A stretch of 59,417 bases of DNA from a virus (IMGVR_UViG_3300003322_000298:1-59417), one strand, 5' to 3'. Shown: positions 2,453 to 44,334, counted from the first letter of the stretch. Numbers and translations are program-made. The notes: a model not told the origin generated them from the letters alone.

Positions 2453-4462
2453 ATGACGAAGAAACGCGCCTATGCCGAGTTGGCCATCAAGGCTGCGGAG
2501 AGCAGCGATGGGAAGCGCCGGTTCACCGGCATCGCGTCGACCATCAGCACCGACCGCATGGACGATGTGGTCGTGCCCAAGGGCGCCGTCTTCAAGCTCC
2601 CGCTGCCGCTGCTTTGGCAGCACAACAGCCGCGAGCCCATCGGCTGGGTCGTGGCGGCGCGCATCAAAGATTCGCAGATCGAAGTCGATTGCGAGGTGCA
2701 CGTCGAAACCGAGCCGGGCGCGCTGAAGGATCGCCTCGATGAGGCCTGGCAGATGATGAAGGCCGGCCTGGTTCGAGGCCTGTCGATCGGCTTCAATCCG
2801 CTGGAGAGCCTTCGAATCGAGGGCACCTATGGCTACAAGTACACGTCATGGGAGTGGCTCGAACTATCCCCGGTGACGATCGCCGCCAATCAGGAGGCGA
2901 CCATCCTTTCGATCAAATCCGCCGATGAGGCTCTGCTGGCCGCGCAAGGCACAGGGCGGCGCCAGGGCGGCGGATTTGCTCTTCTCCCCGGCGTCTCGGG
3001 GGCACGGCCTGCCGCGCAGCAGCGTGGCGTTTCACTTCAAACCACCCCGAAAGGATCCGCGATGAATATCGCTGCTCAATTGAAGGCCCTGCGTGACGCC
3101 CGCGAAGCCAAGGCCGCGCGCATGCAGGAGATCATGACCAAGGCCGCCAGCGAAGGCCGTTCCACCGACTCCGACGAGGCGAAGGAATTCGACGAACTGG
3201 CACAGGACATCGAGACCGCCGCGAAGGACATCGCGCGCCTCGAAGCTCTGGAGAAGATCACCAAGGCGCAAGCCGTGCCAGCCGGCGCCGAGCGCGGCGA
3301 CCCCACCGAAGTGCGTGGCGGCACCTCGCTGGAAATCGGCCGCATTTTTAGCACGCGCCGCAACATCGAGAAGGGCACGGCCTTCACGCGCTATGCCATG
3401 GCCATTGCCCGCGGCAAGGGCTCCATCGTCGAAGCCATCAACTTCGTCGAGCAGATGACCAAGGCCGGCGGCGCCTGGGAGAACACCCCCGAGGTGTTGA
3501 CCCAGCTCAAGGCCGCCAGTGCTGCCGGCTCGACCACGGACACGACCTTCGCATCGAGCCTGGTCTATGCGCAGAACCTGTCCGATGAGTTCATCGAGCT
3601 TCTGCGTCCGATGACCATCCTCGGCAAGTTCGGTACCGGCAACATCCCGAGCCTGCGTCGCGTGCCATTCAACGTGCGCATGGCCTCGCAGACCGGCGGT
3701 GGCACCTATGGCTGGGTGGGCGAAGGCGCGCCCAAGCCCGTGGGCGAGCTGACCATCACCGACGTCACGCTGCGCTGGGCCAAGGCCGCCGGCATCATCG
3801 TGATCACTGAAGAGCTGGCGAAGTTCTCGTCGCCCACCGCCGAGGCGGTGGTGCGTCAGGACATGCTCGACGGCATGGCGGCCTTCTCTGACGTGCAGTT
3901 CATCAGCCCGCAGGTGTTCGAAGTCGCGAACGTCAGCCCGGCCTCGATCACGAACCTCGTCACCGACACGCCGGCCACCGGCACGACCGCCGACGCGTTC
4001 CGCACCGACATCGCGTCGCTGCTGAACAAGATGTGGACGGCGAATCTCGCGCCTACGTCGGGCGTGTGGATCATGTCGAACCGCATCGCGACGGCGATCT
4101 CGCTGATGCGCAACACGCTGGGCCAGAAGGAATTCCCCGACATGACGCCCATGGGCGGCATGCTGGAAGGATTCCCGGTGATCACCAGCGAATCGGTGCC
4201 CGACACCAGCGACGGCGCGATGATCGTGTTCGTCAACGCGAAGGACATCTTCTTCAGCGATGACGGCCCGGTGACGATCGACACCAGCCGCGAGGCCACG
4301 CTGCAGATGGACACCGCACCGACCGACCCGACCGTCGCCTCCACGGTGTTGATCAGCCTCTGGCAGCGCAACCTGATCGGCCTGCGTGCCGAGCGCTACA
4401 TGAACTGGAAGCGTCGTCGCTCGGCGGCTGTCCAGTACATCAGCGGCGCGAACTACCACTGA
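2453..4462 (+). CDS. HK97-type prohead serine protease fused to major capsid protein
   Basis: N-terminal ~190 aa carry S78-protease strings (LWQHNSREPIGWV, GLSIGF). A coiled-coil delta-like segment follows, then an HK97-like capsid body. An internal ATG at 3062 is preceded by AAAGGA. Confidence 0.88.
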   Translation: MTKKRAYAELAIKAAESSDGKRRFTGIASTISTDRMDDVVVPKGAVFKLPLPLLWQHNSREPIGWVVAARIKDSQIEVDCEVHVETEPGALKDRLDEAWQMMKAGLVRGLSIGFNPLESLRIEGTYGYKYTSWEWLELSPVTIAANQEATILSIKSADEALLAAQGTGRRQGGGFALLPGVSGARPAAQQRGVSLQTTPKGSAMNIAAQLKALRDAREAKAARMQEIMTKAASEGRSTDSDEAKEFDELAQDIETAAKDIARLEALEKITKAQAVPAGAERGDPTEVRGGTSLEIGRIFSTRRNIEKGTAFTRYAMAIARGKGSIVEAINFVEQMTKAGGAWENTPEVLTQLKAASAAGSTTDTTFASSLVYAQNLSDEFIELLRPMTILGKFGTGNIPSLRRVPFNVRMASQTGGGTYGWVGEGAPKPVGELTITDVTLRWAKAAGIIVITEELAKFSSPTAEAVVRQDMLDGMAAFSDVQFISPQVFEVANVSPASITNLVTDTPATGTTADAFRTDIASLLNKMWTANLAPTSGVWIMSNRIATAISLMRNTLGQKEFPDMTPMGGMLEGFPVITSESVPDTSDGAMIVFVNAKDIFFSDDGPVTIDTSREATLQMDTAPTDPTVASTVLISLWQRNLIGLRAERYMNWKRRRSAAVQYISGANYH

Positions 4463-4930: not shown

Positions 4931-5178
4931 TGGCTGCCGGCGAAGTCGTCGTCGAGGTGAAGCTCTCGCGCGCCGCTCTTGCACTGGCGTTGCTGCGTGG
5001 CATCATGGCCGCGCTCGTATCTGCAGAACTGTGGGCGATGGCGCTGATCTTCATCGGCTTCGCGCTGATCGTGGCCGGTGTGGCTTTGATCTATGGCCTT
5101 GGCGCAGCGCTGATCGTGGCCGGTGCTTCATGCCTGCTACTGGCTGGGTTCATCTTTCGAGGGATGACGCATGTCTAA
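4930..5178 (+). CDS. small membrane protein
   Basis: ORF coupled TAATG to the upstream gene. Two or three hydrophobic helices. Confidence 0.5.
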   Translation: MAAGEVVVEVKLSRAALALALLRGIMAALVSAELWAMALIFIGFALIVAGVALIYGLGAALIVAGASCLLLAGFIFRGMTHV

Positions 5179-6610
5179 CCTATCCGTCTTCGGCGCGCTG
5201 CGCGGCGCTCTCACGGTGAAGGAGCCGGTCGACGTTTCCCTGCAGAACCTGCATCCACCAGGGCCTGGCGGCGGCGGCTGGTGGCCCATCGTGCGCGAGT
5301 CGTTCCCCGGCGCTTGGCAGCAGAACGTCGAGATCCGTCGCGACCTAGCCCTCGCGAACTGGGCGGTCTTCTCCTGCCTCACGCGGATCTCGAACGACAT
5401 GGGCAAGATGCGGCTTCGCCTAGTCAACGAAACCGCAGACGGCACTTGGGAAGAGACGCAGAGCCCGGCCTTCTCGCCGGTGCTGCGCAAGCCGAACCGG
5501 TATCAGACGCGGCAGAAGTTCATCGAGCACTGGCTGATCTCCAAGCTGGCCCACGGCAATACCTATGTGCTGAAGGAGCGCGACAAGCGCGGCGTCGTCG
5601 TCGCCCTCTACGTGCTCGACCCGCAACGGTGCAAGCCCCTCGTCGCGCCCGACGGCTCGGTCTACTACGCGCTGTGCGATGACTGGCTCGCCGGCCTCGA
5701 TCAATCTCTGCCCGCCGTGCCGGCAAGCGAGGTGATCCACGACGTCATGTATGCGCTCTTTCACCCGCTGTGCGGGCTGCCGCCCCTCTTCGCGTGCTCG
5801 CTGGCAGCCAGTACCGGCCTCAAGGCGCAGGAGAATGCCGCGCGCTTCTTCGCGAACCAGAGCATGCCGAGTGGCATCATCACGGCGCCCGAGCAGATCG
5901 AGGACACCGTCGCGGCGCGCATCAAAGCACACTGGGAGAATGGCTACACCGGGGTGAACGCCGGCCGCGTGGCTGTGCTGGGCGACGGCATGGAATACAA
6001 GCCGCTGGCCATGAAGTTCGTCGACTCCGACATGATCAATCAGCTGAAGCTCAGCGGGCAGATGATCTGCTCGACCTTCCACGTGCCGCCGTGGAAGGTG
6101 GGCCTCGAAGCGCTGCCGTCGGGTCAGAAGGTCGGCGACATGAACCAGATTTATTACAACGACTGCCTGCAGCCGCTGATCGAGTCGATCGAGGGCCTGC
6201 TCGACGATGGCCTCGGGCTGACCGAGCCGAAGGACGGCGTTCTCATGGGCACCGAGTTCGACCTGAGCGACCTCATCAAGATGGACGAGGGCACGCAGAT
6301 CACCACGCTGAACGAGGCCGTGAAGGGCGGATGGATGAAGCCCGACGAAGCGCGCCGTCGCCGCAACCTGCGGCCGGTGGAGGGCGGCAATACGCCGTAT
6401 ATGCAGCAGCAGAACTTCGCGCTGTCCGACCTAGCGCGCCGCTCGCAGCTCGACGACCCCTTCTCTGCCGGCAAGGCCGCGCCGCCGGCTCCCGCGCCGG
6501 CACCGGCAGATCCGCCGTCGCCGGAAGACGATGGCGCAGCCAATGATGCCGCGAAGGCATTCGCCGAGGCGCTGATCGAGCGCTTGATCCAGGCGACGGC
6601 GGAGACCTGA
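5171..6610 (+). CDS. portal protein (HK97 family)
   Basis: 479 aa with N-terminal region and length typical of Phage_portal family proteins. Confidence 0.9.
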   Translation: MSNLSVFGALRGALTVKEPVDVSLQNLHPPGPGGGGWWPIVRESFPGAWQQNVEIRRDLALANWAVFSCLTRISNDMGKMRLRLVNETADGTWEETQSPAFSPVLRKPNRYQTRQKFIEHWLISKLAHGNTYVLKERDKRGVVVALYVLDPQRCKPLVAPDGSVYYALCDDWLAGLDQSLPAVPASEVIHDVMYALFHPLCGLPPLFACSLAASTGLKAQENAARFFANQSMPSGIITAPEQIEDTVAARIKAHWENGYTGVNAGRVAVLGDGMEYKPLAMKFVDSDMINQLKLSGQMICSTFHVPPWKVGLEALPSGQKVGDMNQIYYNDCLQPLIESIEGLLDDGLGLTEPKDGVLMGTEFDLSDLIKMDEGTQITTLNEAVKGGWMKPDEARRRRNLRPVEGGNTPYMQQQNFALSDLARRSQLDDPFSAGKAAPPAPAPAPADPPSPEDDGAANDAAKAFAEALIERLIQATAET

Positions 6611-8877: not shown

Positions 8878-9285
8878 ATGTTCGGGCGCGCGTATTTTGG
8901 TGGCGGCTACTTCGGGCACCGTTACTTCGGTGACGGCGGCAGCATTCCGGCGACCGGCGCCAGCGCGGCGGCCGTCTGGGCCTATGTGCTGCCGAACGGG
9001 AAGAGCGCAGGGCAGAACATCGTCGAGATCAACGCCGGTATTTCAGCGCTACTGGCCATGCCGTCTTGCCTGGAGACGAACATCGAGGGCGGCTTCACTG
9101 CTGCCGACATCCTGCGGGTTCTCGCCGCGGTTGCCGCCGGCAAGACGACAATCACGGCGGGCGGCGGTGGTGCCGCCCAGGTGCAGTTCCGCTCGATCGA
9201 TGACACGCGCGAGGTGATCGACGCGAGCATGCAGGGCAGCGAACGAATCGACCTCACAATCGACCCCGGAGAGACGCCGTCATGA
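8878..9285 (+). CDS. hypothetical protein (YFGG-repeat N-terminus)
   Basis: ORF starting MFGRAYFGGGYFGHRYFGDGG. Confidence 0.6.
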   Translation: MFGRAYFGGGYFGHRYFGDGGSIPATGASAAAVWAYVLPNGKSAGQNIVEINAGISALLAMPSCLETNIEGGFTAADILRVLAAVAAGKTTITAGGGGAAQVQFRSIDDTREVIDASMQGSERIDLTIDPGETPS

Positions 9286-10559
9286 GCACAAAGAGAATCA
9301 GCCCCATGGAGCGCCTGGCCGACAGCGTGATGGCCGCGCTTCGCGGCTTCGTCGAATCGGCCGAGCGCCGCATCATGGGCAACGTCGAAAAGCGCTTCAA
9401 GGATCTGCCGGCCCCGCGCGACGGGAAGGACGGCCGCAGCGTCGAGCCGGAAGACGTGCGGAAGATGGTCGGCGAAGTCGTGGCCGCACTGGAGCTGCGC
9501 AGTGGCGAGGACGGCCGGGAAGGCCCTCCCGGCAAGGATGCGCCACCCGTCGATCTCGACGCGCTCAAAGAGAAGGTCCTGCCCGACCTGCTCAAGGCGG
9601 CCGACGACAAGATCGCCAATGTCGTGGCTCAGCTGCCGAGCGCGGAGGAAATGAAGGGCGAACCCGGCGACAAGGGTGAAGCCGGTCCGGCCGGTCCGGC
9701 CGGAGAGTCGGTGAGCGCCGAGCAGGTCGCAGTCCAGGTGCTGCCAGGCCTGCAGGCCATGGCCAAAGAGCTGATCGAGACGGCTGTCTCGGCCATTCCC
9801 GATCCGGAGCAGCTCAAGGGTCCGCAGGGTGAGCGCGGACCGGCGGGCGAGTCCGGCGTTGCGCCGACCGTCGCCGAGGTGGCCGAAGCCGTGCTGCCCA
9901 CCGTCAAGGAGGCCGCGCTTGTCGAGGTGGCGAAGATCGAGCCGCGCGCTGGCAAGGATGCCGACCCCGCGGAGATCGTCGAGCGGCTGATGCCGGTCGT
10001 GCGCGAGCAGTTGGAAGCGCTGGTGAAGGCCATCCCGCTGGCGAGGGACGGCCGCGACGGCGCTCCCGGGCGTGACGCCGCGCAGGTCGAGGTAATGCCG
10101 GCGCTCGACGAAAAGCGGGTGTACCCGCGCAGCACCTTCGCTCAGCACAAGGGCGGCCTCTGGCGCAGCCACAAGACAACCGAGGGCATGCTCGGCTGGG
10201 ACTGCATCGTGCGCGGCGTCGACAGCCTGGATATTGAGCAGGACGCCGAAGACCCGCGGCTCTTCCGCGTCGTCTCGACGCTTTCCGATGGCACGCGCGA
10301 GGAGAAGCAGCTGCGCATCCCCGCGGTGATCGATCGCGGCGTGTTCAAGGATGGCGAGGAGTACCAGAAGGGTGACGGCGTCACATGGGCGCGGCACTAC
10401 TGGATTGCCAAGCGCGACACGAAAGCCAAACCCGACGGTGGCGACGACTGGCGCCTTGCCGTCAAGTCCGGCCGTGATGGCCGCGACGGCAAAGACGGGA
10501 AGGACGGCGAGCGCGGCCCGCGCGGCGAACCCGGCAAGATCATCGGAGGCCTGCCATGA
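9282..10559 (+). CDS. collagen-like repeat protein
   Basis: Five Gly-X-Y blocks, for example GEPGDKGEAGPAGPAGES and GRDGRDGKDGKDGERGPRGEPG. Shares a P-x-P-R-D-G-x-D-G motif with 6615-7157. Confidence 0.75.
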   Translation: MSTKRISPMERLADSVMAALRGFVESAERRIMGNVEKRFKDLPAPRDGKDGRSVEPEDVRKMVGEVVAALELRSGEDGREGPPGKDAPPVDLDALKEKVLPDLLKAADDKIANVVAQLPSAEEMKGEPGDKGEAGPAGPAGESVSAEQVAVQVLPGLQAMAKELIETAVSAIPDPEQLKGPQGERGPAGESGVAPTVAEVAEAVLPTVKEAALVEVAKIEPRAGKDADPAEIVERLMPVVREQLEALVKAIPLARDGRDGAPGRDAAQVEVMPALDEKRVYPRSTFAQHKGGLWRSHKTTEGMLGWDCIVRGVDSLDIEQDAEDPRLFRVVSTLSDGTREEKQLRIPAVIDRGVFKDGEEYQKGDGVTWARHYWIAKRDTKAKPDGGDDWRLAVKSGRDGRDGKDGKDGERGPRGEPGKIIGGLP

Positions 10560-11191
10560 TCGATTCGAACCCCATCGCGATCACGGCGCCGGAGTCGAGC
10601 GCACTGTCCTTCATCAGCCTCGACCGTCTGCGCGCGCAGTGCGAGATCGTGCCGACCGAAGAGGACAGCGACGGCGTGCAGAGTCACCCCGACGACGCGC
10701 TGATCACTGGCTACCTGGAAAGCGCGATCGAGAAGGCCGAGGATTTCACGGGCCTCGCGATCTCGCTGCGCACCTGGGAGCAGGGCCGCGACGGCTACCC
10801 CATGTGGGGACGCGCGCCCATCGAGATCCTCCGGCCACCGCTCGTGCAGTTCATTTCCTTCACGTCGTCACAGGACAGCGACGGCGAGGTCGACCCGGCC
10901 ACGTACATCGTCGACCCGTTCGGACCCGTGGCCAGGCTGCGGCCGGTGACGTGCTGGCCCATCAGCTGCAACCCGGCACCGGCCTCGATGCGGCTGCGCT
11001 TCCGCGCGGGCTACAGCAACGAAGACAGCGATGCGAAGCCGCTGCCGGGGTTGATCCGCCAGGCGCTGCTGCTCACCGTCGCCGAGTGGTACAAGAATCG
11101 CGAAAACACCGTCGAGGGAGCCGTGCAGGAGCTGCCGGCGAGCGCGATGCACCTCCTGCGGCCTCGCCGCGTTCGCCTGGGGATGGCCTGA
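10556..11191 (+). CDS. head-tail connector (gp6-like)
   Basis: Position and N-terminal pattern (ALITGYLESAIEKAEDFTG) typical of Phage_connect_1 proteins. Confidence 0.75.
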   Translation: MIDSNPIAITAPESSALSFISLDRLRAQCEIVPTEEDSDGVQSHPDDALITGYLESAIEKAEDFTGLAISLRTWEQGRDGYPMWGRAPIEILRPPLVQFISFTSSQDSDGEVDPATYIVDPFGPVARLRPVTCWPISCNPAPASMRLRFRAGYSNEDSDAKPLPGLIRQALLLTVAEWYKNRENTVEGAVQELPASAMHLLRPRRVRLGMA

Positions 11192-11192
11192 C

Positions 11193-11561
11193 ATGCGCCG
11201 CGTAAGCGCGGGCCGCCTGCGGCACTGGCTGACCTTCGAGCGCCTGACCGTCGAGAACGACAGCGACGGCGCTCAGGTCGAGGCTTGGGTTCCCGCCTTC
11301 CCGGTGGGCCACATCATGCCGGCTGAGGTGACGCCGATCAGTGGTCGCGAGTTCATCGCCGCCGCCGCGACGCAGTCCAAGGTGACGCATCGCATCAAGA
11401 TCCGCTACCGAGAGGAGTTCCTCGCTCTGGGCTTCACGATGCGCGCGCGCACGGCCCGCAGCGGCCTGGTGTTCAATATCGAAGGGGCGCTCCCCGACCC
11501 CGACAGCGGCGTGCGGTACATAACGCTGATGGCTTCGTCTGGCATCAGCCCGGGGATGTAA
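11193..11561 (+). CDS. head-tail adaptor / head closure protein
   Basis: 122 aa. RLRHWLTFE...VTHRIKIRYR pattern typical of Phage_H_T_join proteins. Confidence 0.78.
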   Translation: MRRVSAGRLRHWLTFERLTVENDSDGAQVEAWVPAFPVGHIMPAEVTPISGREFIAAAATQSKVTHRIKIRYREEFLALGFTMRARTARSGLVFNIEGALPDPDSGVRYITLMASSGISPGM

Positions 11562-12160
11562 TGATCAAGGCGCGGCAGCCCGACTTCCGCGGGCGCACGG
11601 TAGCCGTGCTCGCCAGTGGACCGAGCCTGAGGCAGGAAGACATCGAGGCCGTGCGCGAGAGCGGGTGGGTCGCGATCGTCACGAATGCGACGTTCCTGCA
11701 TGCACCGTGGGCCGACGTGCTCTTCGGCTTCGACGCGCGCTTCTGGGGGGTCTACGGGCAACGCGCGAAGCTGGAATTCAAGGGCAGGATGGTGACGCAC
11801 TCGCAGACGCTTCCCAATGCGCACAGCGTCGAGTCCACGCACGGCTGCGAGTGGTTTATGCCGGCCGGCAACTCCGGGGCGTGCGCGGCGAACTACGCAC
11901 TCGCCGGCCACCCGGAGCGCGTCATCCTGCTGGGTTGCGACGCGCAGCTCACCGGTGGCCGCGCGCACTTCTTCGGAAACCACGAGGGTGGCCTGACGAA
12001 TTGCCTTTCGATCGGCCGTTGGCCCTCTGACTTCAAACAGGTGGCAGCGAAGGCGGCGATGATGCGCATCGCCGTGATCAATGCGAGCCGCGAGACGAGG
12101 CTCGACTGTTTCCCGCGAGCAGCGCTCGAAGACTTGCTGCCGGCGAAGGTGAATGCGTGA
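11561..12160 (+). CDS. DUF115/Maf-like (sialyltransferase-fold) protein
   Basis: VAVLASGPSL nucleotide-sugar-binding-like N-terminus and AGNSGACAANYALAGHPERVILLGCD core. Confidence 0.6.
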   Translation: MIKARQPDFRGRTVAVLASGPSLRQEDIEAVRESGWVAIVTNATFLHAPWADVLFGFDARFWGVYGQRAKLEFKGRMVTHSQTLPNAHSVESTHGCEWFMPAGNSGACAANYALAGHPERVILLGCDAQLTGGRAHFFGNHEGGLTNCLSIGRWPSDFKQVAAKAAMMRIAVINASRETRLDCFPRAALEDLLPAKVNA

Positions 12161-12951
12161 AGACCATCCGCGGCGGGCGAGGCCTTGGTGACACGCTGTA
12201 TCTGCAGGCGATCGTGCGCTACCTGGTGGCCCAGCATGACGAGGTGATTCAGGCGGCGTCAGATTTCCCTGACGTGTTCCGCACCCTCGGCAGGCGGGTT
12301 CGGGTCATACCATTCACTCGCGTCGGCGTCGGCATCGTGGCGCACTACGTGGCGCGCAAAGGCATGCCTGGCACAACGCAGTTCGAGGACATGTGCCTCT
12401 CGGCCGGCATTAGAAAGCCTGTCGACCTCGTGCTCGACTGGAAAGTAATAGACGAGGAAATCGTGCGGCTCGTGAAGGCGCCCGGCAAGCCAGTGATCTG
12501 TGTGCAGCTGCCACGCGCACCGATGGGGCGTACGGATGGGTTCGGCCACGATATCCTGCCGAACTGCGACGCCATCCAGCATGCATTGGAGGCACTGGCC
12601 GGCCGAGTCACCATCGTGCAGATAGGTGCCGGCAAGCCGCTGTATAGCTTCCGCGGCGTAGTCGACATCAACCTAGCCGATCAGACGAGCGTGTCTCAAC
12701 TGCTCGACGTGGCATCGGTGGCCGATGGCTTCGTCGGGTATCCGAGCTTCATCGTGCCGCTGGCCGAGTGCTTCGACCAGCCTTCGCTGATCGTATGGTC
12801 AGCACTAGGCCTGCAGTCCCTCGACCCGTTCATCAACAGGATCGCGCCTGGCAAGGTGCTGCACAAGAAGACCAGCAGGGCAGTTATCGACACCATGTCT
12901 AGAGAGGAGATCGCAAATGCAGCTGTCGCCCAGTTTCTGCACAAAGGCTGA
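12157..12951 (+). CDS. glycosyltransferase family 9-like (heptosyltransferase fold)
   Basis: N-terminal GRGLGDTLYLQAIVRYL and C-terminal LADQTSVSQLLDVASVADGFVGYPSFIVPLAE resemble GT9 signatures. Confidence 0.55.
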   Translation: MKTIRGGRGLGDTLYLQAIVRYLVAQHDEVIQAASDFPDVFRTLGRRVRVIPFTRVGVGIVAHYVARKGMPGTTQFEDMCLSAGIRKPVDLVLDWKVIDEEIVRLVKAPGKPVICVQLPRAPMGRTDGFGHDILPNCDAIQHALEALAGRVTIVQIGAGKPLYSFRGVVDINLADQTSVSQLLDVASVADGFVGYPSFIVPLAECFDQPSLIVWSALGLQSLDPFINRIAPGKVLHKKTSRAVIDTMSREEIANAAVAQFLHKG

Positions 12952-13597
12952 GGTAGCCAAGACCTTCGCCGGCAAGCGCGTGGCCATCGTCGGCAGCGGT
13001 CCCGGCGCGCTCGACAACGAACCCGGCTTCATCGACTCGCACGACGTCGTCGTGCGCGTGAACAATTACAAGCTCAGCGAGTCAACTGGCTTTCGGTGCG
13101 ATGTGCACTATTCCTTCTATGGATCGTCGATCAAGAAGGATCGACTCGAACTGGCCGCCGACGGCGTGCGCCTGGTCATGTGCAAGTGCCCCGATGCGAA
13201 GTTCATGGAGAGCGAGTGGCATCGCAGAATGAACAAGCCGCACGGCGTGGACTTCCGCTACATCTACGCGATGCGGCGCGACTGGTGGTTTTGCCCGACA
13301 TACATCCCCAGCGCGGAGGAGTTCCAGCGGAGCTTCGACCTGCTGGCCCAGCACATCCCATCGACTGGCTTCTCTGCGATCCTCGCCGTGCGCGAGCAAC
13401 GTCCGGCCAGCATCTATCTCACAGGTTTCGACTTCTTCGCGTCGCGCGTGCACAACGTCAACGAACCGTGGCGTCCCGGCAATCCCGATGATCCGATTGG
13501 CCACGCGCCGGAGTTAGAGCGAGCATGGCTTCGCGGTCGACTTCACGAAGGCATCACGATGGATGCCCGGCTTGCTTCCATCATGAAAGGGGAATGA
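12917..13597 (+). CDS. CstII/GT42-GT29-like sialyltransferase
   Basis: KRVAIVGSGPGALDNEPGFIDSHDVVVRVNNY, PSTGFSAILAV...IYLTGFDFF and PIGHAPELE match sialyl-motif L/S-like and CstII catalytic-His contexts. This is recalled from memory. Confidence 0.65.
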   Translation: MQLSPSFCTKAEVAKTFAGKRVAIVGSGPGALDNEPGFIDSHDVVVRVNNYKLSESTGFRCDVHYSFYGSSIKKDRLELAADGVRLVMCKCPDAKFMESEWHRRMNKPHGVDFRYIYAMRRDWWFCPTYIPSAEEFQRSFDLLAQHIPSTGFSAILAVREQRPASIYLTGFDFFASRVHNVNEPWRPGNPDDPIGHAPELERAWLRGRLHEGITMDARLASIMKGE

Positions 13598-13598
13598 C

Positions 13599-14174
13599 GT
13601 GCAATTCTGGTCAGCTGAAATTGAGAAGCAGGTCGGGGCGCGAGTGCAGATGGTGCTCGAAGATCCGCAGCTGCTGAAGGCATACCAGAGATTCGGCGCC
13701 GACATTCTGCGCAGGTCGAGCGTGTTCCACGGCCTCGACAAATTCCTGCGCGACACCGGTGTGCGCGGCGAGCGATGCTTCGAGATCGGCACATGGAATG
13801 GCCTTACCGCGGTCATCCTTTCGCGCTACTTCGACGAGGTGGTGAGCGTCGACATCGCTCATAACGCCGTCAAACACGAGGTGCTCGACTACCTCGGCGT
13901 GCGCAACGTGACGTGCATCGACATCCGCGACAACAGCCACAAAGCCCAAGTCGCGAACCGCATGTACTTCGACTTCGCCTATCTCGATGGCGACCATGCC
14001 AGCGACACCGCCGACGACTGGGCGCTGACGAAGAAGGCCGGGCGCGTGCTCTTCCACGAGGTGTGGCCGCATCAGCCGCCCGTCTGGGAACTGGTCCACC
14101 AGCAGCACCCAGCAGAGGTGACGTTCAACGGCCAAGGTCTGGCGCTCTGGCAAGCCCGGGAGAAGCGTGTATGA
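13599..14174 (+). CDS. class I SAM-dependent methyltransferase
   Basis: GTG start. CFEIGTWNGLTAVIL (motif I) and FDFAYLDGDH. Confidence 0.72.
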   Translation: MQFWSAEIEKQVGARVQMVLEDPQLLKAYQRFGADILRRSSVFHGLDKFLRDTGVRGERCFEIGTWNGLTAVILSRYFDEVVSVDIAHNAVKHEVLDYLGVRNVTCIDIRDNSHKAQVANRMYFDFAYLDGDHASDTADDWALTKKAGRVLFHEVWPHQPPVWELVHQQHPAEVTFNGQGLALWQAREKRV

Positions 14175-14680
14175 GTCTCTATCGATACAAAGGCGAGCTG
14201 TTCCCCGACTACCTGAAGACGGGCAATGCATGCCAGCACATCGCCGCCACGGCCCTGCACTTCTGCAAGGGCTATGGCGTCGACGTCGGCGCGAACGAGT
14301 GGCCGCTTCCCGGCGCGATTCCCGTCGACAGCAAGCACGGCGGCGACGCAATGAACCTGCCGGGCTCGGAATTCGACTTCGTCTTCAGCAGCCATTGCCT
14401 GGAGCACTTGCCGAATCCGATCGCGGCGCTGGATCACTGGATTGCCAGCCTGCGCGATGGCGGCGTGCTGTTCCTGTATCTTCCCCACCCAGATATGACG
14501 TATTGGCGCCCGCAGAACTGCAGGAAGCATCTGCACAGCTGGCGGCCTGCCGACATGGCGCAGATCTTGAAGGATCTCGGCCTCCAGTCGGTGATTCACG
14601 GCGAGCGCGACCTCGCCTGGAGCTTCGCAGTGGTCGGTTACAAGCACGGTGGTTTCGGAGACAGCTGGGAGACGAGCTGA
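14171..14680 (+). CDS. class I SAM-dependent methyltransferase
   Basis: ATG 14171 (ATGA coupling). GVDVGAN...FDFVFSSHCLEHLPNP...LRDGGVLFLYLP. Confidence 0.72.
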   Translation: MSLYRYKGELFPDYLKTGNACQHIAATALHFCKGYGVDVGANEWPLPGAIPVDSKHGGDAMNLPGSEFDFVFSSHCLEHLPNPIAALDHWIASLRDGGVLFLYLPHPDMTYWRPQNCRKHLHSWRPADMAQILKDLGLQSVIHGERDLAWSFAVVGYKHGGFGDSWETS

Positions 14681-15327
14681 TGGACCGTTTCATTGCCAGG
14701 ATGCAGGGCGAGCGCGATGGTGACCTCGTGCTCTGCCACGAGTTCGGCGTCGCCTACCAGGCCGACATGACGCCCACGGCTGCGTATGACGACAGCTACT
14801 TCGACAAGTGCGCGGGCTACGAAGGCAGCGAGATCGCCGAGAAGATCAACGCGGGCCGCGTGGCCTTCGTGAACAAGCATATGGGCGGCAATCGCGTGCT
14901 CGACGTCGGCATCGGCTCCGGCGAGTTCATTCGCCGCCGGCCCAACACGTGGGGAACCGATGTGAACCCGCGGGCCCTGAAGTGGCTGCGAGACAACGGC
15001 CACCAGGCCGATGACTTCGATGGCTTCGCCGGCTACACGTTCTGGGACGTGATCGAGCACGTGCCGGCGCCAGAGGAGTACCTGAGGCACGTGCAGCTCG
15101 GCGCCTACGTCTTCACGTCGATCCCCATCGTGTACGGCCTGCGCGCGGTGCGGCAGTCGAAGCACTACAGACCCGGCGAGCACCTCTACTACTGGACCGA
15201 GCAGGGCTTCACCAACTGGATGCGCATGCACGGCTTCATGCTGCTGGAGACGTCGCGATTCGAGATCGACGCAGGCCGCGAGTCCATCATGTCGTTCACC
15301 TTCAAGCGCTTCGCCTGGCCGCGCTGA
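14680..15327 (+). CDS. class I SAM-dependent methyltransferase
   Basis: ATG 14680 overlaps the upstream TGA. VLDVGIGSGEF...WDVIEHVPAPEEYL. Confidence 0.72.
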   Translation: MDRFIARMQGERDGDLVLCHEFGVAYQADMTPTAAYDDSYFDKCAGYEGSEIAEKINAGRVAFVNKHMGGNRVLDVGIGSGEFIRRRPNTWGTDVNPRALKWLRDNGHQADDFDGFAGYTFWDVIEHVPAPEEYLRHVQLGAYVFTSIPIVYGLRAVRQSKHYRPGEHLYYWTEQGFTNWMRMHGFMLLETSRFEIDAGRESIMSFTFKRFAWPR

Positions 15328-15336
15328 CGCGCGACA

Positions 15337-15858
15337 ATGCCGGCCATGGCCTCTGATCTCGTCGAATTCAAGCTGAACGGCGTCGACGGCGTGCTCGACA
15401 TGCTCAAGTCTTTGCCGGCCGAGGTGGTGAGCAAGCGCGGAGGCGTCGTCAAGATAGCGCTTCGCAAGGGTGCGCGCGTGATCCTGCAGGCCGAGAAGGT
15501 CGCGCTTCAGCGCTCGATCAATGCCGGCGTGTCCGAAGAGGAAAGCACGGGGCTGCTCATGAAGAGCCTGGTCGTCACGCGCGGCAAGCCGCCGATCGGC
15601 GGCAAGGGTGAGCGCTACCTGACGCGGGTCAAGCTCAAGGCATACGACGGCCAGTCGCTGAAGAAGAAGCAGAAGCGCGGCAAGCGCGTGACGACGTTGA
15701 AAACCGCGCAGCTGATGGAATACGGCAGCGGCCACCAGGAGGCGCAGCCGTGGATCCGCCCGGCATTCAAGGCCAAGGCAGCCGAGGCGATCGCCGTCGT
15801 CGAGCGTGAGACCGTGGCAGGCATCGAGCAGGCCGTGAAGAAGCTACTCAAGACCTGA
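15337..15858 (+). CDS. HK97 gp10-like tail/neck component
   Basis: 173 aa. QPWIRPAFKAK motif and position ahead of the tail genes. Confidence 0.75.
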   Translation: MPAMASDLVEFKLNGVDGVLDMLKSLPAEVVSKRGGVVKIALRKGARVILQAEKVALQRSINAGVSEEESTGLLMKSLVVTRGKPPIGGKGERYLTRVKLKAYDGQSLKKKQKRGKRVTTLKTAQLMEYGSGHQEAQPWIRPAFKAKAAEAIAVVERETVAGIEQAVKKLLKT

Positions 15859-15869
15859 GAGGAAACAAA

Positions 15870-16247
15870 ATGCTGCCACCGGTATACCGCGACCTCAAAA
15901 ACTCGACGCGTGTCGTCGAGATTGTGGCCGACCGCATCTTTCGGCGCGGCGTGGTCGCGCTGCCGCAGAGCGGCCCCTACCTGACGTGGTTCCTCGTGAC
16001 TGGCGTACCTGAGAACACGCTGAGCGAGACGCCTGCTGTCGACAGGATGACGGTGCAGATCGACGTCTGGGCGCCCACGGACAAGCAATGCGAGGTTTTG
16101 GCGACGGCTGTGCGCGACGCACTGGAAGACAAAGCTCACATGACGGGGATGCCGATCGACGGACGCGATCCGGACACGAAACTTTGGCGGCTAGCGCTGG
16201 AGTTCGACTACTTCGTCGGCAGACCTGCGCTGGAGCCGACGAGCTAG
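15870..16247 (+). CDS. DUF3168-like tail completion/terminator protein
   Basis: 125 aa, position and N-terminal pattern. Ends with TAG. Confidence 0.7.
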   Translation: MLPPVYRDLKNSTRVVEIVADRIFRRGVVALPQSGPYLTWFLVTGVPENTLSETPAVDRMTVQIDVWAPTDKQCEVLATAVRDALEDKAHMTGMPIDGRDPDTKLWRLALEFDYFVGRPALEPTS

Positions 16248-16266
16248 CCTAGAATCGTGTCGGACC

Positions 16267-16288
16267 CGACGGGGGTGCAACCCCGTCG
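16267..16288 (+). promoter_or_regulatory. stem-loop upstream of the major tail gene
   Basis: CGACGGGG-gtgcaa-CCCCGTCG, an 8-bp stem with no T tract. Confidence 0.35.
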
Positions 16289-16375
16289 AGCCCTGACCCT
16301 TGCGACTGGCTGGAGCCGCAGTGGCTTCGATGATTGTCTCTTAACCGCCCACTGGGCACTCTAGGAGCAACCGCC

Positions 16376-16882
16376 ATGACGCAAGGCACTTTGAAAACTC
16401 AGGGATCCGAGCTGTTCGGGATCGACAACTACACGACGACCGATCCGACGCTCTTCAAGATGGCATGCCCGACGGGCATTCAGGGCCTCGGCGGCCCCGC
16501 CGACCAACTCGACGACACTTGCCTCGACAGCGCCGAACGAACCTTCAAGCGCGGCCTCGGCAACCCCGGCCAAGTGACCGTTCCCTTCAATTTCATTCCG
16601 ACGAATACGTCGCATCAGCTGATTAACGCCCTCAAGGAGGACGGCCGCCTGCTGCGCTGGATGATCGGCTTCAGCGATGGCAGCACGGCCCCGACGGTCA
16701 GTGTCGACACCGACGGCGCCGGCTCCTTCGTGGCGCCTGGCTCGCGTACCACGGCCGAATTCGATGCCTACGTCGCCGACGTAAACATCGACATCGCGAC
16801 GAACGAGATCGTTCGCGGGACGATGATCCTGCAGCGCTCCGGCTCGGTGCAGTGGCACTACAACGCTCCGCAGCCGACATGA
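16376..16882 (+). CDS. major tail tube protein
   Basis: ATG 16376 with AGGAG at 16364-16368. Size and position are typical. Confidence 0.78.
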   Translation: MTQGTLKTQGSELFGIDNYTTTDPTLFKMACPTGIQGLGGPADQLDDTCLDSAERTFKRGLGNPGQVTVPFNFIPTNTSHQLINALKEDGRLLRWMIGFSDGSTAPTVSVDTDGAGSFVAPGSRTTAEFDAYVADVNIDIATNEIVRGTMILQRSGSVQWHYNAPQPT

Positions 16883-17217
16883 GCCGCGCGCTGCTGGGGG
16901 AAGCCTCGCTCTATCGAGGCGACAAGCCGCACGAGCGCGTCATTCAATTGCCGAATGGCACGTCGGGCACCTTCTACATCCGCGATCTGCGCGAGATCGA
17001 GGTCGAGGCCTACTTCGAGAAGCAACGGGCCGGTGGCGAACAGCAGATGCTGGCCGAGATCGATCTCTGCGTCGCAGCCATCATGGAGCCGGACGGAGAG
17101 ACCCCATCTCTCGATACCGACCATGCATCTCGCTTGAAGATGGCGGTTCGCAAGCGGCTTGTGCATGCCATCCTCGAAGTGAACGGCTTCATCGACGCGG
17201 AGAAGGCGGGAAACTGA
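16879..17217 (+). CDS. tail assembly chaperone (gpG-like)
   Basis: Lies between the tail tube and tape measure genes. Ends right after a slippery heptamer. Confidence 0.8.
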   Translation: MSRALLGEASLYRGDKPHERVIQLPNGTSGTFYIRDLREIEVEAYFEKQRAGGEQQMLAEIDLCVAAIMEPDGETPSLDTDHASRLKMAVRKRLVHAILEVNGFIDAEKAGN

Positions 17218-17552
17218 TCGCCGCCCAGGGCTCGCGCTGGTTCTGGCATGTGCTAGCGCTTGGTCTGGGCGGACGCTCAATCGCGGAGTGGCAAAGCGTG
17301 ATGTCGGCCACCGAATTTCAGTCGTGGGTGGAATTCTGGAAAGCGCACCCATTCGATGATGAAGCCCGCTATCTGCGGCCTGCTGCGCGGCTCCTGCATG
17401 CGCAGATCGGCGGCAGCTTCGAGGAACATCTGCGCTGGATGCGTCGGAAGATCGATGTCGAGACGGTTGCGCCGCCAGCACCCGAAGGCGGATGGAGTCA
17501 AGCGGACCTGAACACGTTCAAGGCCCTGGGCGCCGTGATACCGCGCGCGTGA
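16879..17552 (+). CDS. tail assembly chaperone frameshift product (gpGT-like)
   Basis: 16879-17214 joined by a -1 shift to 17214-17552. The downstream frame has no convincing independent start or RBS. Confidence 0.7.
17208..17214 (+). promoter_or_regulatory. -1 programmed frameshift slippery site G_GGA_AAC
   Basis: X_XXY_YYZ in the correct register, 1 codon before the TGA. The -1 frame is open from 17214 to 17552. Confidence 0.75.
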
Positions 17553-24881: not shown

Positions 24882-25706
24882 ATGGATCTCACAACCTACT
24901 CACGCCAAGCATTCGGCGAAATGATGCAGGGCACCGCACTTACTTTGCCTTCGTCATGGTGGGTCGGCCTGGCTACGTTGGACACTGACGGTAACCCAGA
25001 GGAGCCGGTGGACAGCGACTACCAGCGTCAGGAGGTCGCGCGCTCGCTCACGGCCTGGGCGGGCACGCAGGGACCTGGAACGGTTCTCGCGAGCACTGGT
25101 ATCACGCACAAGACCAGCAACAACGCCGAGATAAATTTCGGCCCGTCTGCCTTCGCGTGGGCGCCAACCCATGTCGTGATCTTCGACGACGAGGTGGGCG
25201 GCAATTGCTGGTTCTCGATCGAGATCGCCGGCCTCAATGTCGACAGCGAGATGCCGGTGAGTTTCGCGGCAGGCACGTTAGAGATCGTTTTTGGTCTTTC
25301 CAGCGGAACGAGCGACTACTTGTCAAACAAGCTGATTGACCTGGTTTTCCGCGCCCAGGGCTATACGTGGCCGGCTACCGTGTATGCCGCCTACACCACA
25401 ACGATGCCGACCAACTCAGTGGCCGGTACTGAGCCCAGCATCGGGACGGGTTATGCGAGAACAGCACTGGCCTCCACGACAGGCGTCTTTTCGTTGACCG
25501 ATGGCGTCGTCAGCAATATCGCCGAAGTCGCCTTCAATCCTCCGTTGCTCGATCAGGGTAATGTGGTGGGCCAGATGCTAATGGATGATTCGGGTGTCGC
25601 TAACGTCCTCTTCTTCGGCCCGCTCACCGGCTATCCATACACAGTGCAGGGAGGAGGTGCATCGCCACGCTATCCGGCTGGCCAGCTACAGTTTTTCTTC
25701 GCCTGA
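24882..25706 (+). CDS. hypothetical tail-associated protein with two homologous halves
   Basis: The ORF follows the J-like gene. N- and C-terminal halves share a pattern ending ...NF/FN...VV..D..G..LFF. Confidence 0.6.
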   Translation: MDLTTYSRQAFGEMMQGTALTLPSSWWVGLATLDTDGNPEEPVDSDYQRQEVARSLTAWAGTQGPGTVLASTGITHKTSNNAEINFGPSAFAWAPTHVVIFDDEVGGNCWFSIEIAGLNVDSEMPVSFAAGTLEIVFGLSSGTSDYLSNKLIDLVFRAQGYTWPATVYAAYTTTMPTNSVAGTEPSIGTGYARTALASTTGVFSLTDGVVSNIAEVAFNPPLLDQGNVVGQMLMDDSGVANVLFFGPLTGYPYTVQGGGASPRYPAGQLQFFFA

Positions 25707-26703: not shown

Positions 26704-27068
26704 TCGTTCTGGACTATATGAACGCCATGGCTTGCGCGGTGCTACTAGTGCTGGTGTGGCCAGTAGCGAACGCCATGCACAACCGCGGCTTCTGGCTGCA
26801 GCGGATCGGGCTCTGGCTCATCGCCTTCTCGCTCGGCCTCCAGGTATGTGCCCCCTTCTTCGACTTCATCCCAGACGCGACGCCTCTCGGCTCGGTCTTT
26901 ATGACGATCCTCGCTGTCGTCGCCGTACGCCACCGGCACCAGGTCATGGCCGTCGTGAGGCTTGCCGTCGGTGAGATCGCCGCAGATTCGGAGCATCCCA
27001 TGAGGCGCGTCGAAGACCTTCAAACTTCCCAGTTGATGGCCGTCCGTGGCCGAGGAGCCCAGCAATGA
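26700..27068 (+). CDS. membrane protein
   Basis: ATG 26700 (ATGA coupling). Three hydrophobic helices. Confidence 0.55.
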   Translation: MIVLDYMNAMACAVLLVLVWPVANAMHNRGFWLQRIGLWLIAFSLGLQVCAPFFDFIPDATPLGSVFMTILAVVAVRHRHQVMAVVRLAVGEIAADSEHPMRRVEDLQTSQLMAVRGRGAQQ

Positions 27069-39237: not shown

Positions 39238-39344
39238 GCGCCTTCACCATTTGGAGGGTGGGGGAGCGGCAGCTAGGCGGCTCCGACGCTCTCATGGCAG
39301 AGCTGAATGTCGCCCGCGACGAGGCGAGAAAGGAGCGAGCATGA
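39234..39344 (+). CDS. small hypothetical protein (36 aa)
   Basis: ATGA coupling at both ends fills the gap between the neighbouring genes. Confidence 0.4.
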   Translation: MSAFTIWRVGERQLGGSDALMAELNVARDEARKERA

Positions 39345-40237
39345 GCGAGAAGACCGAAATTTCCTGGACCGATGCGACCTTCAATCCCTGGTGGGGATGT
39401 CAGAAGGTGAGCCAGGCCTGCGACAACTGCTATGCGGAACGCGACGCGCATCGCTTCGCACCGGGCCGCGTGCTGTGGGGCATCGACAGCGAACGCCGGG
39501 AGTTCGGCGACAAGCACTGGAACGAGCCGCTTCGCTGGGCACGCACGATGCCGGCAAAGCTCGGCCGCCGTCCTCGCGTCTTCTGCTCGTCGATGGCCGA
39601 CGTGTTCGACAACAAGGCCCCTGAAGGCGCGCGCGATCGGTTGTGGAAGCTGATCGAGGCGACGCCCGAGCTTGACTGGCTTCTGCTGACAAAGCGCGTC
39701 GGGAACGTCGATGCCATGATCCCTTGCAGGTGGCGGGCCGGCCTGCCTTCAAACGTCTGGCTCGGCATCACCGTCGTGAATCAGGAAGAGTTCGATCGCG
39801 ATATCGTCAAGCTGCTGCACATCCGCGCCCGCATCAAGTTCCTCAGCATGGAGCCGCTGCTCGGCCTGGTGCGCATCAACGTGGCGCGCGTAGGCTACAA
39901 GAGCGGCCTTATCGGGGTCGATGAGCGATGCGACCATGTGGACCCGCTGCGAATTTTCGACGGCATCGACTGGGTCATCGTCGGCGGCGAGAGTGGGCCG
40001 AAGGCCAGGCCGATGTACATCGACTGGGTGCGGTCTCTGCGAGATCAGTGCGCGAGCGCTGGCGTTCCTTTCCACATGAAGCAATGGGGGGAATGGTCGG
40101 CGCCCGGTGTGAGTTGGAATGATGCTAAACCGGAAGACGCCGTCGAAGACAAACTCGCGATCTTCAAGGTCGGCAAGAAGGCCGCGGGCCGCGTGCTCGA
40201 CGGCGTGACTCACGACGCTTTCCCGGTACCGCGATGA
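39341..40237 (+). CDS. phage Gp37/Gp68 (DUF5131) family protein
   Basis: TEISWTDATFNPWWGCQKVSQACDNCYAE N-terminal signature. Confidence 0.85.
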   Translation: MSEKTEISWTDATFNPWWGCQKVSQACDNCYAERDAHRFAPGRVLWGIDSERREFGDKHWNEPLRWARTMPAKLGRRPRVFCSSMADVFDNKAPEGARDRLWKLIEATPELDWLLLTKRVGNVDAMIPCRWRAGLPSNVWLGITVVNQEEFDRDIVKLLHIRARIKFLSMEPLLGLVRINVARVGYKSGLIGVDERCDHVDPLRIFDGIDWVIVGGESGPKARPMYIDWVRSLRDQCASAGVPFHMKQWGEWSAPGVSWNDAKPEDAVEDKLAIFKVGKKAAGRVLDGVTHDAFPVPR

Positions 40238-44081: not shown

Positions 44082-44334
44082 AGTGGTCGTATGCAGTGCA
44101 GGCTGCAAGCGCAGCGTAGAGCTGCCACAGGACGGCACCACGCCGCCCGGCTGGGAGCAGCTGCAGATCACCAATCGCTGGCGCTGCATGCAGTGCTATC
44201 GCGAACTCGACGCGGGGAACAGCATGCAGGGAACACAGTCCGCCTTCACGCCCGACCCACTGCCGGCCGACTCGATCGGCGCGCTGAAGAAGCTGCCAGA
44301 CGCGCCGCCGCTTCATGAAAAGGTGAAGCCGTGA
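44071..44334 (+). CDS. hypothetical Cys-rich protein
   Basis: ATG 44071. CSAGC...CMQC. Confidence 0.52.
   Translation: MSGEVVVCSAGCKRSVELPQDGTTPPGWEQLQITNRWRCMQCYRELDAGNSMQGTQSAFTPDPLPADSIGALKKLPDAPPLHEKVKP

Follow-up and report, generated by a model that had tools for sequence, protein, structure and literature searches.

The stretch IMGVR_UViG_3300003322_000298 (59,417 bp, ∼64% GC; hereafter the window) is a complete phage-like contig. The subject of this analysis is a gene at 12917–13597, on the plus strand, encoding a soluble 226 amino acid protein that we refer to as the target. Two genes precede it, ORF199 (11561–12160) and ORF264 (12157–12951), and three genes for predicted S-adenosylmethionine (SAM) methyltransferases, MT1 to MT3, follow it (13599–15327). 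These six plus-strand genes, here called the cassette, are inserted between genes for the head and the tail of the virion. A sequence-only reading of the window had described the target as a CstII/GT29-like sialyltransferase, and both its 226 amino acid product and all three peptide strings quoted from it are found in the sequence.

The target starts with an ATG codon, which is backed by homologs sharing the same N terminus. A GAGGAG Shine-Dalgarno sequence at 12904–12909 lies 7 nt upstream, within the end of the preceding gene. No segment of the product is long or hydrophobic enough to span a membrane.

Fold, family and sialylmotifs of the target

The AlphaFold2 (AF2) model of the target, built on an alignment of 33 close homologs (A1), has a predicted local distance difference test (pLDDT) score of 90.2 and a predicted template modeling (pTM) score of 0.89. 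Its sole soft stretch comprises residues 171–190, between the GFDFF motif and H196, and by our reading of the model this stretch would be the counterpart of the mobile lid of CstII. A Foldseek comparison with the Protein Data Bank (PDB) returned only GT29 and GT42 sialyltransferases at ranks 1–35, with E values from 3.8e-6 to 4.3e-4; these include ST6GalNAc2, ST8SiaIII, ST3Gal-I and ST6Gal1 from GT29 and CstII and CstI from GT42. The target is thus placed by structure comparison in the sialyltransferase (GT-A variant 2) fold and not in an unrelated one. Among viral models (BFVD), it matches GT29 proteins of an uncultured Caudovirales phage and of a choanoflagellate mimivirid, together with herpesvirus and poxvirus sialyltransferases.

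Profile comparisons lead to the same family. The target or ORF199 as a lone query against PDB sequences gave noise only, and the target has no PHROG or NCBIfam match. The A1 profile reaches ST3Gal-I weakly (E 0.14), and significance is attained only with a broader alignment, A4, of 39 family members down to 23% identity. The A4 profile matches porcine ST3Gal-I at E 5.7e-14 over the whole catalytic domain (profile 20–215 against chain 95–291), followed by the GT29 enzymes ST6GalNAc2 (E 2e-8), ST6Gal1 (E 1e-7) and ST8SiaIII (E 4e-4). The best GT42 match, to CstII, has an E value of 5.4e-8, and since this is weaker than the match to ST3Gal-I, the target appears closer to GT29 than to CstII and its GT42 family. 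A direct hhalign comparison with the single CstII sequence, verified against PDB chains, gives a probability of 12%; it recovers the motif pairings described below and ends before the catalytic His.

The wider family gives a similar picture. A collection of 5.8 billion proteins contains more than 1,100 homologs of the target, of which the best 120 all share 62–77% identity and a length of ∼220 amino acids, several of them with a recorded match to the GT29 family of Pfam, PF00777 (Glyco_transf_29). That model is matched at E ≤ 0.01 by 22 of the 33 homologs in A1. When 1.84 billion representative proteins were searched exhaustively in HMMER with the A1 profile, 1,327 of them matched at E ≤ 1e-3. 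Distant relatives among these lie above the PF00777 cut-off (P0347 with 84 bits, P0398 with 77, P0360 with 70 and P0387 with 62), each matched in three or four stretches, and the close relative P0296 scores 42.7 bits across model positions 44–267 of 272. The Pfam matches of the target and of its close homologs are to PF00777 only. The resemblance to sialyltransferases is therefore far beyond chance, given the Foldseek ranks, the A4 E values and the PF00777 matches, and the likeness to GT29 and GT42 proposed at the outset holds, with the correction that GT29, rather than CstII and GT42, is the nearer family.

Four short segments of the target align with the sialylmotifs. The motif L-like segment, in the nucleotide-sugar binding region, spans residues 20–50 (KRVAIVGSGPGALDNEPGFIDSHDVVVRVNN; 12974–13066) and pairs with “CAVVGNSGNL...IDSHDFVLRMN” of ST3Gal-I, where IDSHDVVVRVN of the target falls on IDSHDFVLRMN, and with “KKVIIAGNGPSL...FDVFRCNQ” of CstII. 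R47 of this motif is invariant in A4, with G26, N49 and D62 conserved to 90% or more; V22 stands where the eukaryotic motif has a cysteine. The motif S-like segment, residues 148–174 (PSTGFSAILAV...IYLTGFDFF; 13358–13438), pairs with “PSTGILSVIFSLHICDEVDLYGF” of ST3Gal-I and with “ITSGVYMCAVA...IYLSGIDFY” of CstII. Here P148-S-T-G151 and G170-F-D fall on the PSTGILS...LYGF of ST3Gal-I, both G151 and G170 are invariant in A4, and the eukaryotic motif S cysteine is, by our reading of the A4 profile alignment, replaced by P163/A164. The A4 alignment to ST3Gal-I thus bears out a likeness to both eukaryotic motifs that had been noticed by eye.

The two remaining motifs carry the histidines. At the motif III-like position, H179-N180 (13451–13462), H179 falls on a His of “HHYWE” in ST3Gal-I; the consensus is (H/Y)-Y-x-(E/D), the target reads H-N-V-N, and “HY” is seen only in more distant relatives, where it is frequent. 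The motif VS-like segment, H196-x4-E201 (13502–13519), contains the predicted catalytic base, H196, and its H196-A-P-E-L-E201 column falls on “VHDGDFE” of ST3Gal-I and on “IGHSKN” of CstII, in which the His is residue 188. His188 of CstII and the motif VS His are the catalytic bases in those structures. When the best 150 of the HMMER representatives were aligned to the family hidden Markov model, His was found at position 179 in 36 of 37 close and 29 of 50 distant relatives and at position 196 in 33 of 34 and 34 of 42, and Glu at position 201 in 33 of 34 and 24 of 40, respectively. H196 is also invariant in the 33 close homologs of A1 and is one of only four invariant columns among the 39 sequences of A4, the others being R47, G151 and G170. 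The His of the PIGH string, singled out earlier as the residue whose conservation should be checked, is therefore conserved and sits on the catalytic His of CstII.

All three motif pairings with CstII that the sequence-only reading had proposed are reproduced by alignment: GSGPG/VRVNN with GNGPS/FRCNQ, PSTGFSA/IYLTGFDFF with ITSGVYM/IYLSGIDFY, and IGH196 with IGH188. Like CstII and CstI, the target is soluble and has the same fold, with an aligned GxGPS loop, RxN, TSG/STG turn, GxDF and catalytic His. Its lid, in contrast, is shorter: 22 residues separate the DF(F/Y) motif from the His, against 32 in CstII. Tyr156 and Tyr162 are the phosphate-binding residues of the CstII lid. Neither is conserved in the target, in which Tyr156 corresponds to F174 (in an ungapped reading) and the Tyr162 region is an insert relative to the profile; in their place the target has the GT29-type motif III His, H179.

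Compared with the eukaryotic GT29 enzymes (ST3Gal-I, 2WML/2WNB; ST6GalNAc2, 6APJ; ST8SiaIII, 5BO6; ST6Gal1), the target shares the GT-A variant 2 fold, the PSTG turn and the H-x4-E motif. In contrast to them, it is only ∼14–16% identical, has a smaller domain of 226 residues, lacks the type II anchor, the stem and the conserved disulfide, and has a stretch of its own between motifs L and S; its donor, too, may not be sialic acid. Within this stretch, residues 89–126 (13181–13294) contain a cluster, C89-K90-C91-P92...W101-H102...C126, that is kept in the close family and whose cysteines are lost among the distant relatives in A4. The cluster may bind a metal or, as an element peculiar to the family, the acceptor.

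A set of 23 chromosomal bacterial GT29 sequences has been placed at the base of the family, without membrane anchor and without the L and S cysteines (Petit et al., 2018; PMC5811610); that study makes no mention of phages. The target fits this “bacterial GT29-like” clade. Because absence of the anchor and cysteines also defines the clade, it excludes the eukaryotic subfamilies and not GT29 in the broad sense. Both groups are soluble, keep motifs L, S and VS and a motif III-like position without an L/S disulfide, and occur in proteobacterial settings, but the target family sits in phage morphogenesis operons, beside a GT9-like gene and methyltransferases. That the target is a divergent bacterial-type GT29-like protein with an intact catalytic apparatus is, as regards fold and family, a placement in which we have high confidence.

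A shared fold need not mean a shared activity. In the fold search, the sialyltransferases are followed at ranks 36–50 by SteA and archaeal HPPK, which are of the MptE/DUF115 type, and the P1 homolog of ORF199 is annotated merely as a “putative morphogenetic function” protein. Both facts would suit a protein that has kept the fold and is no glycosyltransferase, acting instead as a nucleotide-binding, kinase-like or assembly factor in the manner of DUF115/MptE-fold proteins such as HPPK MptE and the cell-division regulator SteA. However, the sialyltransferase E values are better than those of SteA and HPPK by 2–4 orders of magnitude, the sialylmotifs are strongly conserved down to the catalytic His and Glu and to the PSTG turn that binds phosphate and cytidine, and the genes in tight coupling with the target encode another glycosyltransferase and methyltransferases. 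We regard a role other than glycosyl transfer as extremely improbable. The motifs point instead to a transferase of an ulosonic acid activated by cytidine monophosphate (CMP), which is probably the activity of the target.

The cassette and its distribution

Directly upstream of the cassette is a gene for a head closure protein (Hc1; 11193–11561; Phage_HCP, E 1.5e-20), and directly downstream are the Neck1/tail-completion and tail-terminator genes (15337–16247; phrog_5, phrog_78 and Tail_completion_gp17), which with the major tail protein form a run spanning 15337–16882. The head closure, Neck1/tail-completion and tail-terminator genes are on the plus strand.

ORF199 (199 amino acids) is a putative DUF115/MptE-like protein of the Pseudomonas phage D3 orf7 and phage P1 PmgO family. 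It matches phrog_4603 at E 7e-36, a family that bears the label “alpha-2,3-sialyltransferase”. Its match to PF01973 (MptE-like) reaches 14 bits against a cut-off of 34.6, and PF01973 is recorded on 5 of 41 ORF199 homologs. The ORF199 profile has no significant match in the PDB, with CstII appearing only at E ∼0.15. The strings VAVLASGPSL and AGNSGACAANYALAGHPERVILLGCD, from which a two-part architecture common to ORF199 and the target had been proposed, are present in ORF199. The architecture itself is confirmed by hhalign, which aligns ORF199 to the target family with 92% probability (E 5.8e-7; 146 columns; ∼17% identity). The aligned pairs are GSGPG with ASGPS, VRVNN with IVTNAT, PSTGFSA with NSGACA, TGFDFF with LLGCD, and H179 with H136, which is invariant in the ORF199 family. 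BLASTP detects only the N-terminal glycine loop. Because the similarity emerges from profile-profile comparison and hardly from BLASTP, the two proteins belong to one superfamily and are not recent paralogs. To call them paralogous was thus an overstatement, and ORF199 is better described, on this alignment, as a remote member of the sialyltransferase-fold superfamily from a separate family that often occurs without the target.

ORF264 (264 amino acids) has no Pfam, PHROG or NCBIfam match and no significant PDB sequence match. Its AF2 model (pLDDT 94.5) has a GT-B fold, and a Foldseek search identifies it as a GT9-type heptosyltransferase-like protein, with matches to the protein O-heptosyltransferase TibC (2.4e-9), to WaaF (1PSW; 9e-9), to the GT9 entry 3TOV and to WaaC. 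It is ∼60–120 residues shorter than WaaC, WaaF or TibC. One ORF264 homolog carries the Joint Genome Institute (JGI) name ADP-heptose:LPS heptosyltransferase.

Downstream of the target, MT1 (13599–14174) is a class I SAM methyltransferase-like protein whose match to Methyltransf_24 (E 2.6e-4) is below the cut-off; an alternative start at 13650 is indicated by the gene call in one related locus (L084). MT2 (14171–14680) matches Methyltransf_23 at E 1.4e-13, as well as Methyltransf_11 and Methyltransf_12. MT3 (14680–15327) matches Methyltransf_23 at E 6.8e-12 and phrog_6564 at E 6e-50, and is a homolog of D3 orf13.

We surveyed the cassette in 81 loci found with the target profile, 80 of them on IMG/VR contigs and one in a prophage of Pseudoduganella sp. 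UC29_106 (NZ_CP171977.1, around 1.207–1.224 Mb). This Gram-negative betaproteobacterium is the only named host in a genome scan, which used narrow peptide patterns. The order ORF199, ORF264, target, methyltransferases, an arrangement that the sequence-only reading had not noticed, is kept across all 81 loci. ORF264 is directly upstream of the target in 79, the remaining two being cut at a contig end; ORF199 is present in 72 loci, MT3 in 68, MT1 in 64 and MT2 in 57. The structural genes on either side are much more divergent, or are different ones. In one phage with a lambda-type tail tube (L085) the cassette lies upstream of the head-completion gene, and in another with tail genes like those of gene transfer agents (L086) it lies downstream of that gene. 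Since it accompanies different tail types at slightly different neck positions, the cassette moves as a unit, and its site is always the head-tail junction.

Accessory genes within the cassette are rare: a sulfotransferase-like ORF occurs in L036 (3200–3787) and an extra methyltransferase in L072. Among the distant-relative proteins (P0370, P0296 and P0399) are fusions of a GT29-like domain with Methyltransf_23, Sulfotransfer_2 and MptE-like domains, which echo the gene make-up of the cassette. The fusions and the L036 ORF suggest recurrent methylation or sulfation of the sugar being transferred. In L082 (12685–20666 of the 610-kb contig ENA ERZ25039524 contig_7154), the cassette is followed directly by sugar genes in place of tail genes. 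These encode GT4-family glycosyltransferases, a UDP-GlcNAc 2-epimerase, a UDP-sugar dehydrogenase and a GATase/HisF-like amidotransferase pair, and the arrangement may be a larger glycan cluster or the junction of a prophage with a host polysaccharide locus.

Cultured phages present a different distribution. A tblastn search with the target against 50,697 deposited phage genomes returned no relatives, and a DNA-level search of the same records with the 5.8-kb region returned no match; cultured phages therefore lack the cassette as such. ORF199 homologs, in contrast, occur in 68 cultured-phage records, including Pseudomonas phages D3 (orf7) and PAJU2, phages P1 (PmgO) and P7 (HdmB), and phages of Caulobacter and Brevundimonas. 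Among the loci, the genes have a nested distribution, from ORF199 alone, as with P1 PmgO, through a core of ORF199, ORF264, target and MT3, to the full cassette.

Phage D3 (NC_002484.2, 5951–9143) has three genes that compare with the cassette, all in its head-neck region. Its orf7, placed after the major head protein, is 41% identical to ORF199 (E 3e-34), and its orf13 methyltransferase is 36% identical to MT3 (E 8e-35). The 275 amino acid orf12 product occupies the position of ORF264, with a weak collinear similarity that is suggestive at most (hhalign E 1.4e-3; 18% probability), and orf12 and orf13 lie between Hc1 and a gp10-like gene. Unlike the window, D3 has no GT29-like gene, no MT1 and no MT2, and its genes are split by those for the adaptor and Hc1. 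D3 thus represents an intermediate or reduced state of the system and is a tractable cultured model for it.

Operon context, donors and acceptors

Within 9000–17500 there are no sigma-70-like sites, and the only plus-strand terminator-like match is weak, lies inside the target and is below chance expectation. The junctions are close throughout: the Hc1 stop and the ORF199 start overlap in TAATG, ORF199 and ORF264 overlap by 4 nt, ORF264 and the target overlap by 35 nt, and the target and MT1 are separated by 1 nt. Because promoter and credible terminator are lacking and the genes overlap or abut, the cassette is part of the late operon rather than an autonomous moron. The description of the target as a late gene accordingly stands, in that it lies within a tightly coupled structural operon of overlapping genes with head and tail neighbors.

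This setting bears on what the cassette modifies. One possibility is that it remodels a host envelope glycoconjugate, such as the inner core of lipopolysaccharide (LPS), O-antigen, capsule or flagellin, and not the virion, with the GT9-like and GT29-like enzymes adding heptose and ulosonic acid to lipid-linked or protein acceptors. The phage would gain by masking its own receptor (superinfection exclusion) or by keeping its progeny from adsorbing to debris. Several facts are in keeping with such a role. CstII itself acts on lipooligosaccharide, bacterial GT29-like genes have been discussed in connection with the ulosonic acids of LPS (PMC5811610), and the cassette of L082 abuts a cluster of polysaccharide-type genes. 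The window also encodes, at 27065–28849, a 594 amino acid protein with a right-handed β-helix (Pfam Beta_helix, E 1.3e-11), probably a tailspike or depolymerase, implying recognition of a host surface polysaccharide by the phage, so surface glycans matter to it. However, a cassette without promoter or terminator of its own and coupled to neck genes would be silent in a lysogen, unlike the classical conversion morons, and expression minutes before lysis leaves scant time to export modified LPS. In addition, the cassette proteins are all soluble, with no membrane-association signal, and the cassette, whatever the phage lineage, is found at the head-tail junction. On balance we consider envelope remodeling unlikely.

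The donors are constrained by the rest of the genome. A Pfam scan of the 20 larger non-structural ORFs (≥197 amino acids) found no NeuA-, NeuB- or KdsB-type, cytidylyltransferase, C5-DNA-methylase, TET or ThyS-like proteins. As there is no sugar-nucleotide pathway among the phage ORFs scanned, the cassette has to obtain its donors from the host. ADP-heptose and CMP-activated 3-deoxy-D-manno-octulosonic acid (CMP-Kdo) are present in any cell that makes LPS. Plant GT29-like proteins have been proposed as CMP-Kdo transferases of rhamnogalacturonan II (PMC11288761, PMC5811610). From these two considerations, we infer that CMP-Kdo is at least as plausible a donor as a CMP-nonulosonic acid. Sialic acid as the transferred sugar, and with it the di-sialylation proposed at the outset, is no more than a possibility.

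The same two sugar classes occur in modified phage DNA. Phage glycosyltransferases transfer Kdo, mono-heptose and di-heptose from Escherichia coli pools to 5-hydroxymethylcytosine, and a GT-B enzyme is involved (bioRxiv 10.1101/2023.12.21.572611). The cassette might by analogy hypermodify the phage DNA with sugars, the methyltransferases preparing the base. The known clusters are, however, defined by an adjacent C5-cytosine methyltransferase and a TET-like 5mYOX or ThyS-like enzyme (bioRxiv 10.1101/2023.12.21.572611), whereas the methyltransferases of the window are of the Methyltransf_23, _11, _12 and _24 types and not DNA methylases, and the scanned non-structural ORFs of at least 197 amino acids contain no DNA_methylase, Tet_JBP or thymidylate-synthase match. 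The 50 best fold matches of ORF264 comprise GT9, WaaG and other GT-B proteins, and T4 β-glucosyltransferase is not listed among them; the cassette is, moreover, in the morphogenesis operon and not in a replication module. DNA hypermodification is a very improbable function for it.

The explanation that we favor overall is a virion-decorating glycosylation cassette with a GT29-type enzyme, to which we lean with modest confidence. In this model, motifs L, S and III of the 226 amino acid enzyme would bind a CMP-activated 2-keto-3-deoxy (ulosonic) sugar, which would be transferred with inversion, H196 in the H-x4-E motif serving as the general base. The enzyme would work within a collinear, translationally coupled module, together with ORF199, ORF264 and as many as three SAM methyltransferases. 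The most economical donors would be the LPS inner-core precursors of the host, CMP-Kdo and ADP-heptose, with a host CMP-nonulosonic acid as the alternative. The product would most likely be a short, acidic, methylated glycan that a virion protein receives in the cytoplasm as the particle is assembled. ORF199 would act first and the GT29-like enzyme would extend a pre-existing modification, an order that the nested distribution and the intermediate state of D3 suggest but do not show. The parts of this model differ in strength. The present data demonstrate the fold and family of the target, its conserved catalytic His, and a conserved cassette embedded within the late operon. A CMP-ulosonic sugar as the donor class is strongly indicated; Kdo as the specific donor, like the order of enzyme action, is faintly so. 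A virion protein as the acceptor is a tentative assignment that we rate slightly below an even chance.

A number of observations weigh against the virion model or parts of it. The target alone scores 18.7 bits against PF00777 (E 0.0012), short of the gathering cut-off of 23 bits, and its model reaches a TM-score of only ∼0.5 with solved sialyltransferases. We know of no biochemical data for any bacterial or phage GT29-like protein, the target included. WaaF and WaaC, LPS heptosyltransferases that are among the closest solved relatives of ORF264, reach higher TM-scores (0.60–0.66) than TibC, which favors an envelope acceptor. The scan for donor synthesis covered the larger ORFs only, the methyltransferases could modify protein instead of sugar, and late expression of the cassette does not prove that its acceptor is in the virion.

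A candidate for a specific acceptor, whose rejection also counts against the model, was a collagen-repeat protein of 425 amino acids encoded at 9282–10559. It has short GXY runs and a conserved C-terminal domain, matches PHROGs labeled “portal” and “tail fiber”, and may be a head fiber or decoration protein. Its gene is just upstream of the cassette in 37 of 49 loci, and the protein occurs widely among related phages, whether or not they have the cassette. Among 34 independent loci carrying the collagen-repeat protein, however, the target is present in none, and an ORF199-like gene alone is present in ∼14. The protein was therefore rejected as the specific acceptor, and its association with the cassette reflects a shared phage lineage, not function.

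Known systems, other genes of the window and significance

In the part of the mycobacteriophage literature considered here, glycosyltransferases of structural operons are linked to virion glycosylation. As in the window, these glycosyltransferases, some of them accompanied by methyltransferases, stand among virion genes, and capsid or tail proteins are the expected acceptors. In contrast, the host here is inferred to be Gram-negative, the enzymes are GT29-, GT9- and DUF115-like and not conventional GT-A or GT-B enzymes that use UDP- or GDP-sugars, and virion glycosylation is a prediction.

The fold, the bacterial GT29-like sequences, a few phage proteins automatically annotated as GT29 and the mycobacteriophage glycosyltransferases are already known. 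In the searchable literature we found no description of the cassette, of the function of PmgO, or of glycosylation of phage virions with nonulosonic acid or heptose. Nor did we find there any prior account of a GT29-like family that resides exclusively, across many uncultured phages, in a conserved head-tail junction cassette of GT9-like, GT29-like and DUF115-like genes with methyltransferases, of the absence of the target from all 50,697 deposited phage genomes, or of a tie between such a cassette and the “morphogenetic” genes of D3 and P1. A comparison of the cassette with a library of defense systems gave weak, generic methyltransferase similarity only.

Other features of the window are worth recording. 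The major capsid protein is a 669 amino acid fusion of a Peptidase_S78 prohead protease with Phage_capsid, and its gene lies upstream of that for the portal (2453–4462 and 5171–6610, respectively), which is uncommon for an HK97-like head module. A 274 amino acid protein encoded at 24882–25706, downstream of the gene for the central tail fiber, has a Gp80 (podophage GP4 fiber I) domain, which also occurs close to the portal in L082. Genes for a DUF5131 protein (39251–40237; E 1e-85) and a DUF1643 protein (44331–44840; E 1.5e-35) lie in the non-structural half of the genome.

The bacterial and phage GT29-like proteins stand at the base of the animal sialyltransferase family, and a small, soluble, highly conserved version of 226 amino acids with a high-confidence model should offer an easy biochemical entry to them. 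Soluble CMP-ulosonic acid transferases are also sought-after tools for glycoengineering. If the proposed virion glycosylation is correct, the target would be the first characterized prokaryotic-type GT29, a protein-directed transferase of Kdo or of a nonulosonic acid, and a function would be at hand for the D3 orf7 and P1 PmgO family, whose members have been “putative morphogenetic” proteins since the annotation of the P1 genome. In its broadest form, the proposal is of a widespread and previously undescribed virion-glycosylation system of Gram-negative phages, in which a mobile cassette builds a methylated, acidic, core-like glycan from ADP-heptose and CMP-Kdo; as a whole this is a rather doubtful conjecture. 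Were it true, virion glycosylation would reach from mycobacteriophages to phages of Gram-negative bacteria, with unusual acidic, methylated sugars that originate in the pool of LPS-core precursors, and would bear on phage stability, immune recognition, adsorption and the pharmacology of phage therapy.

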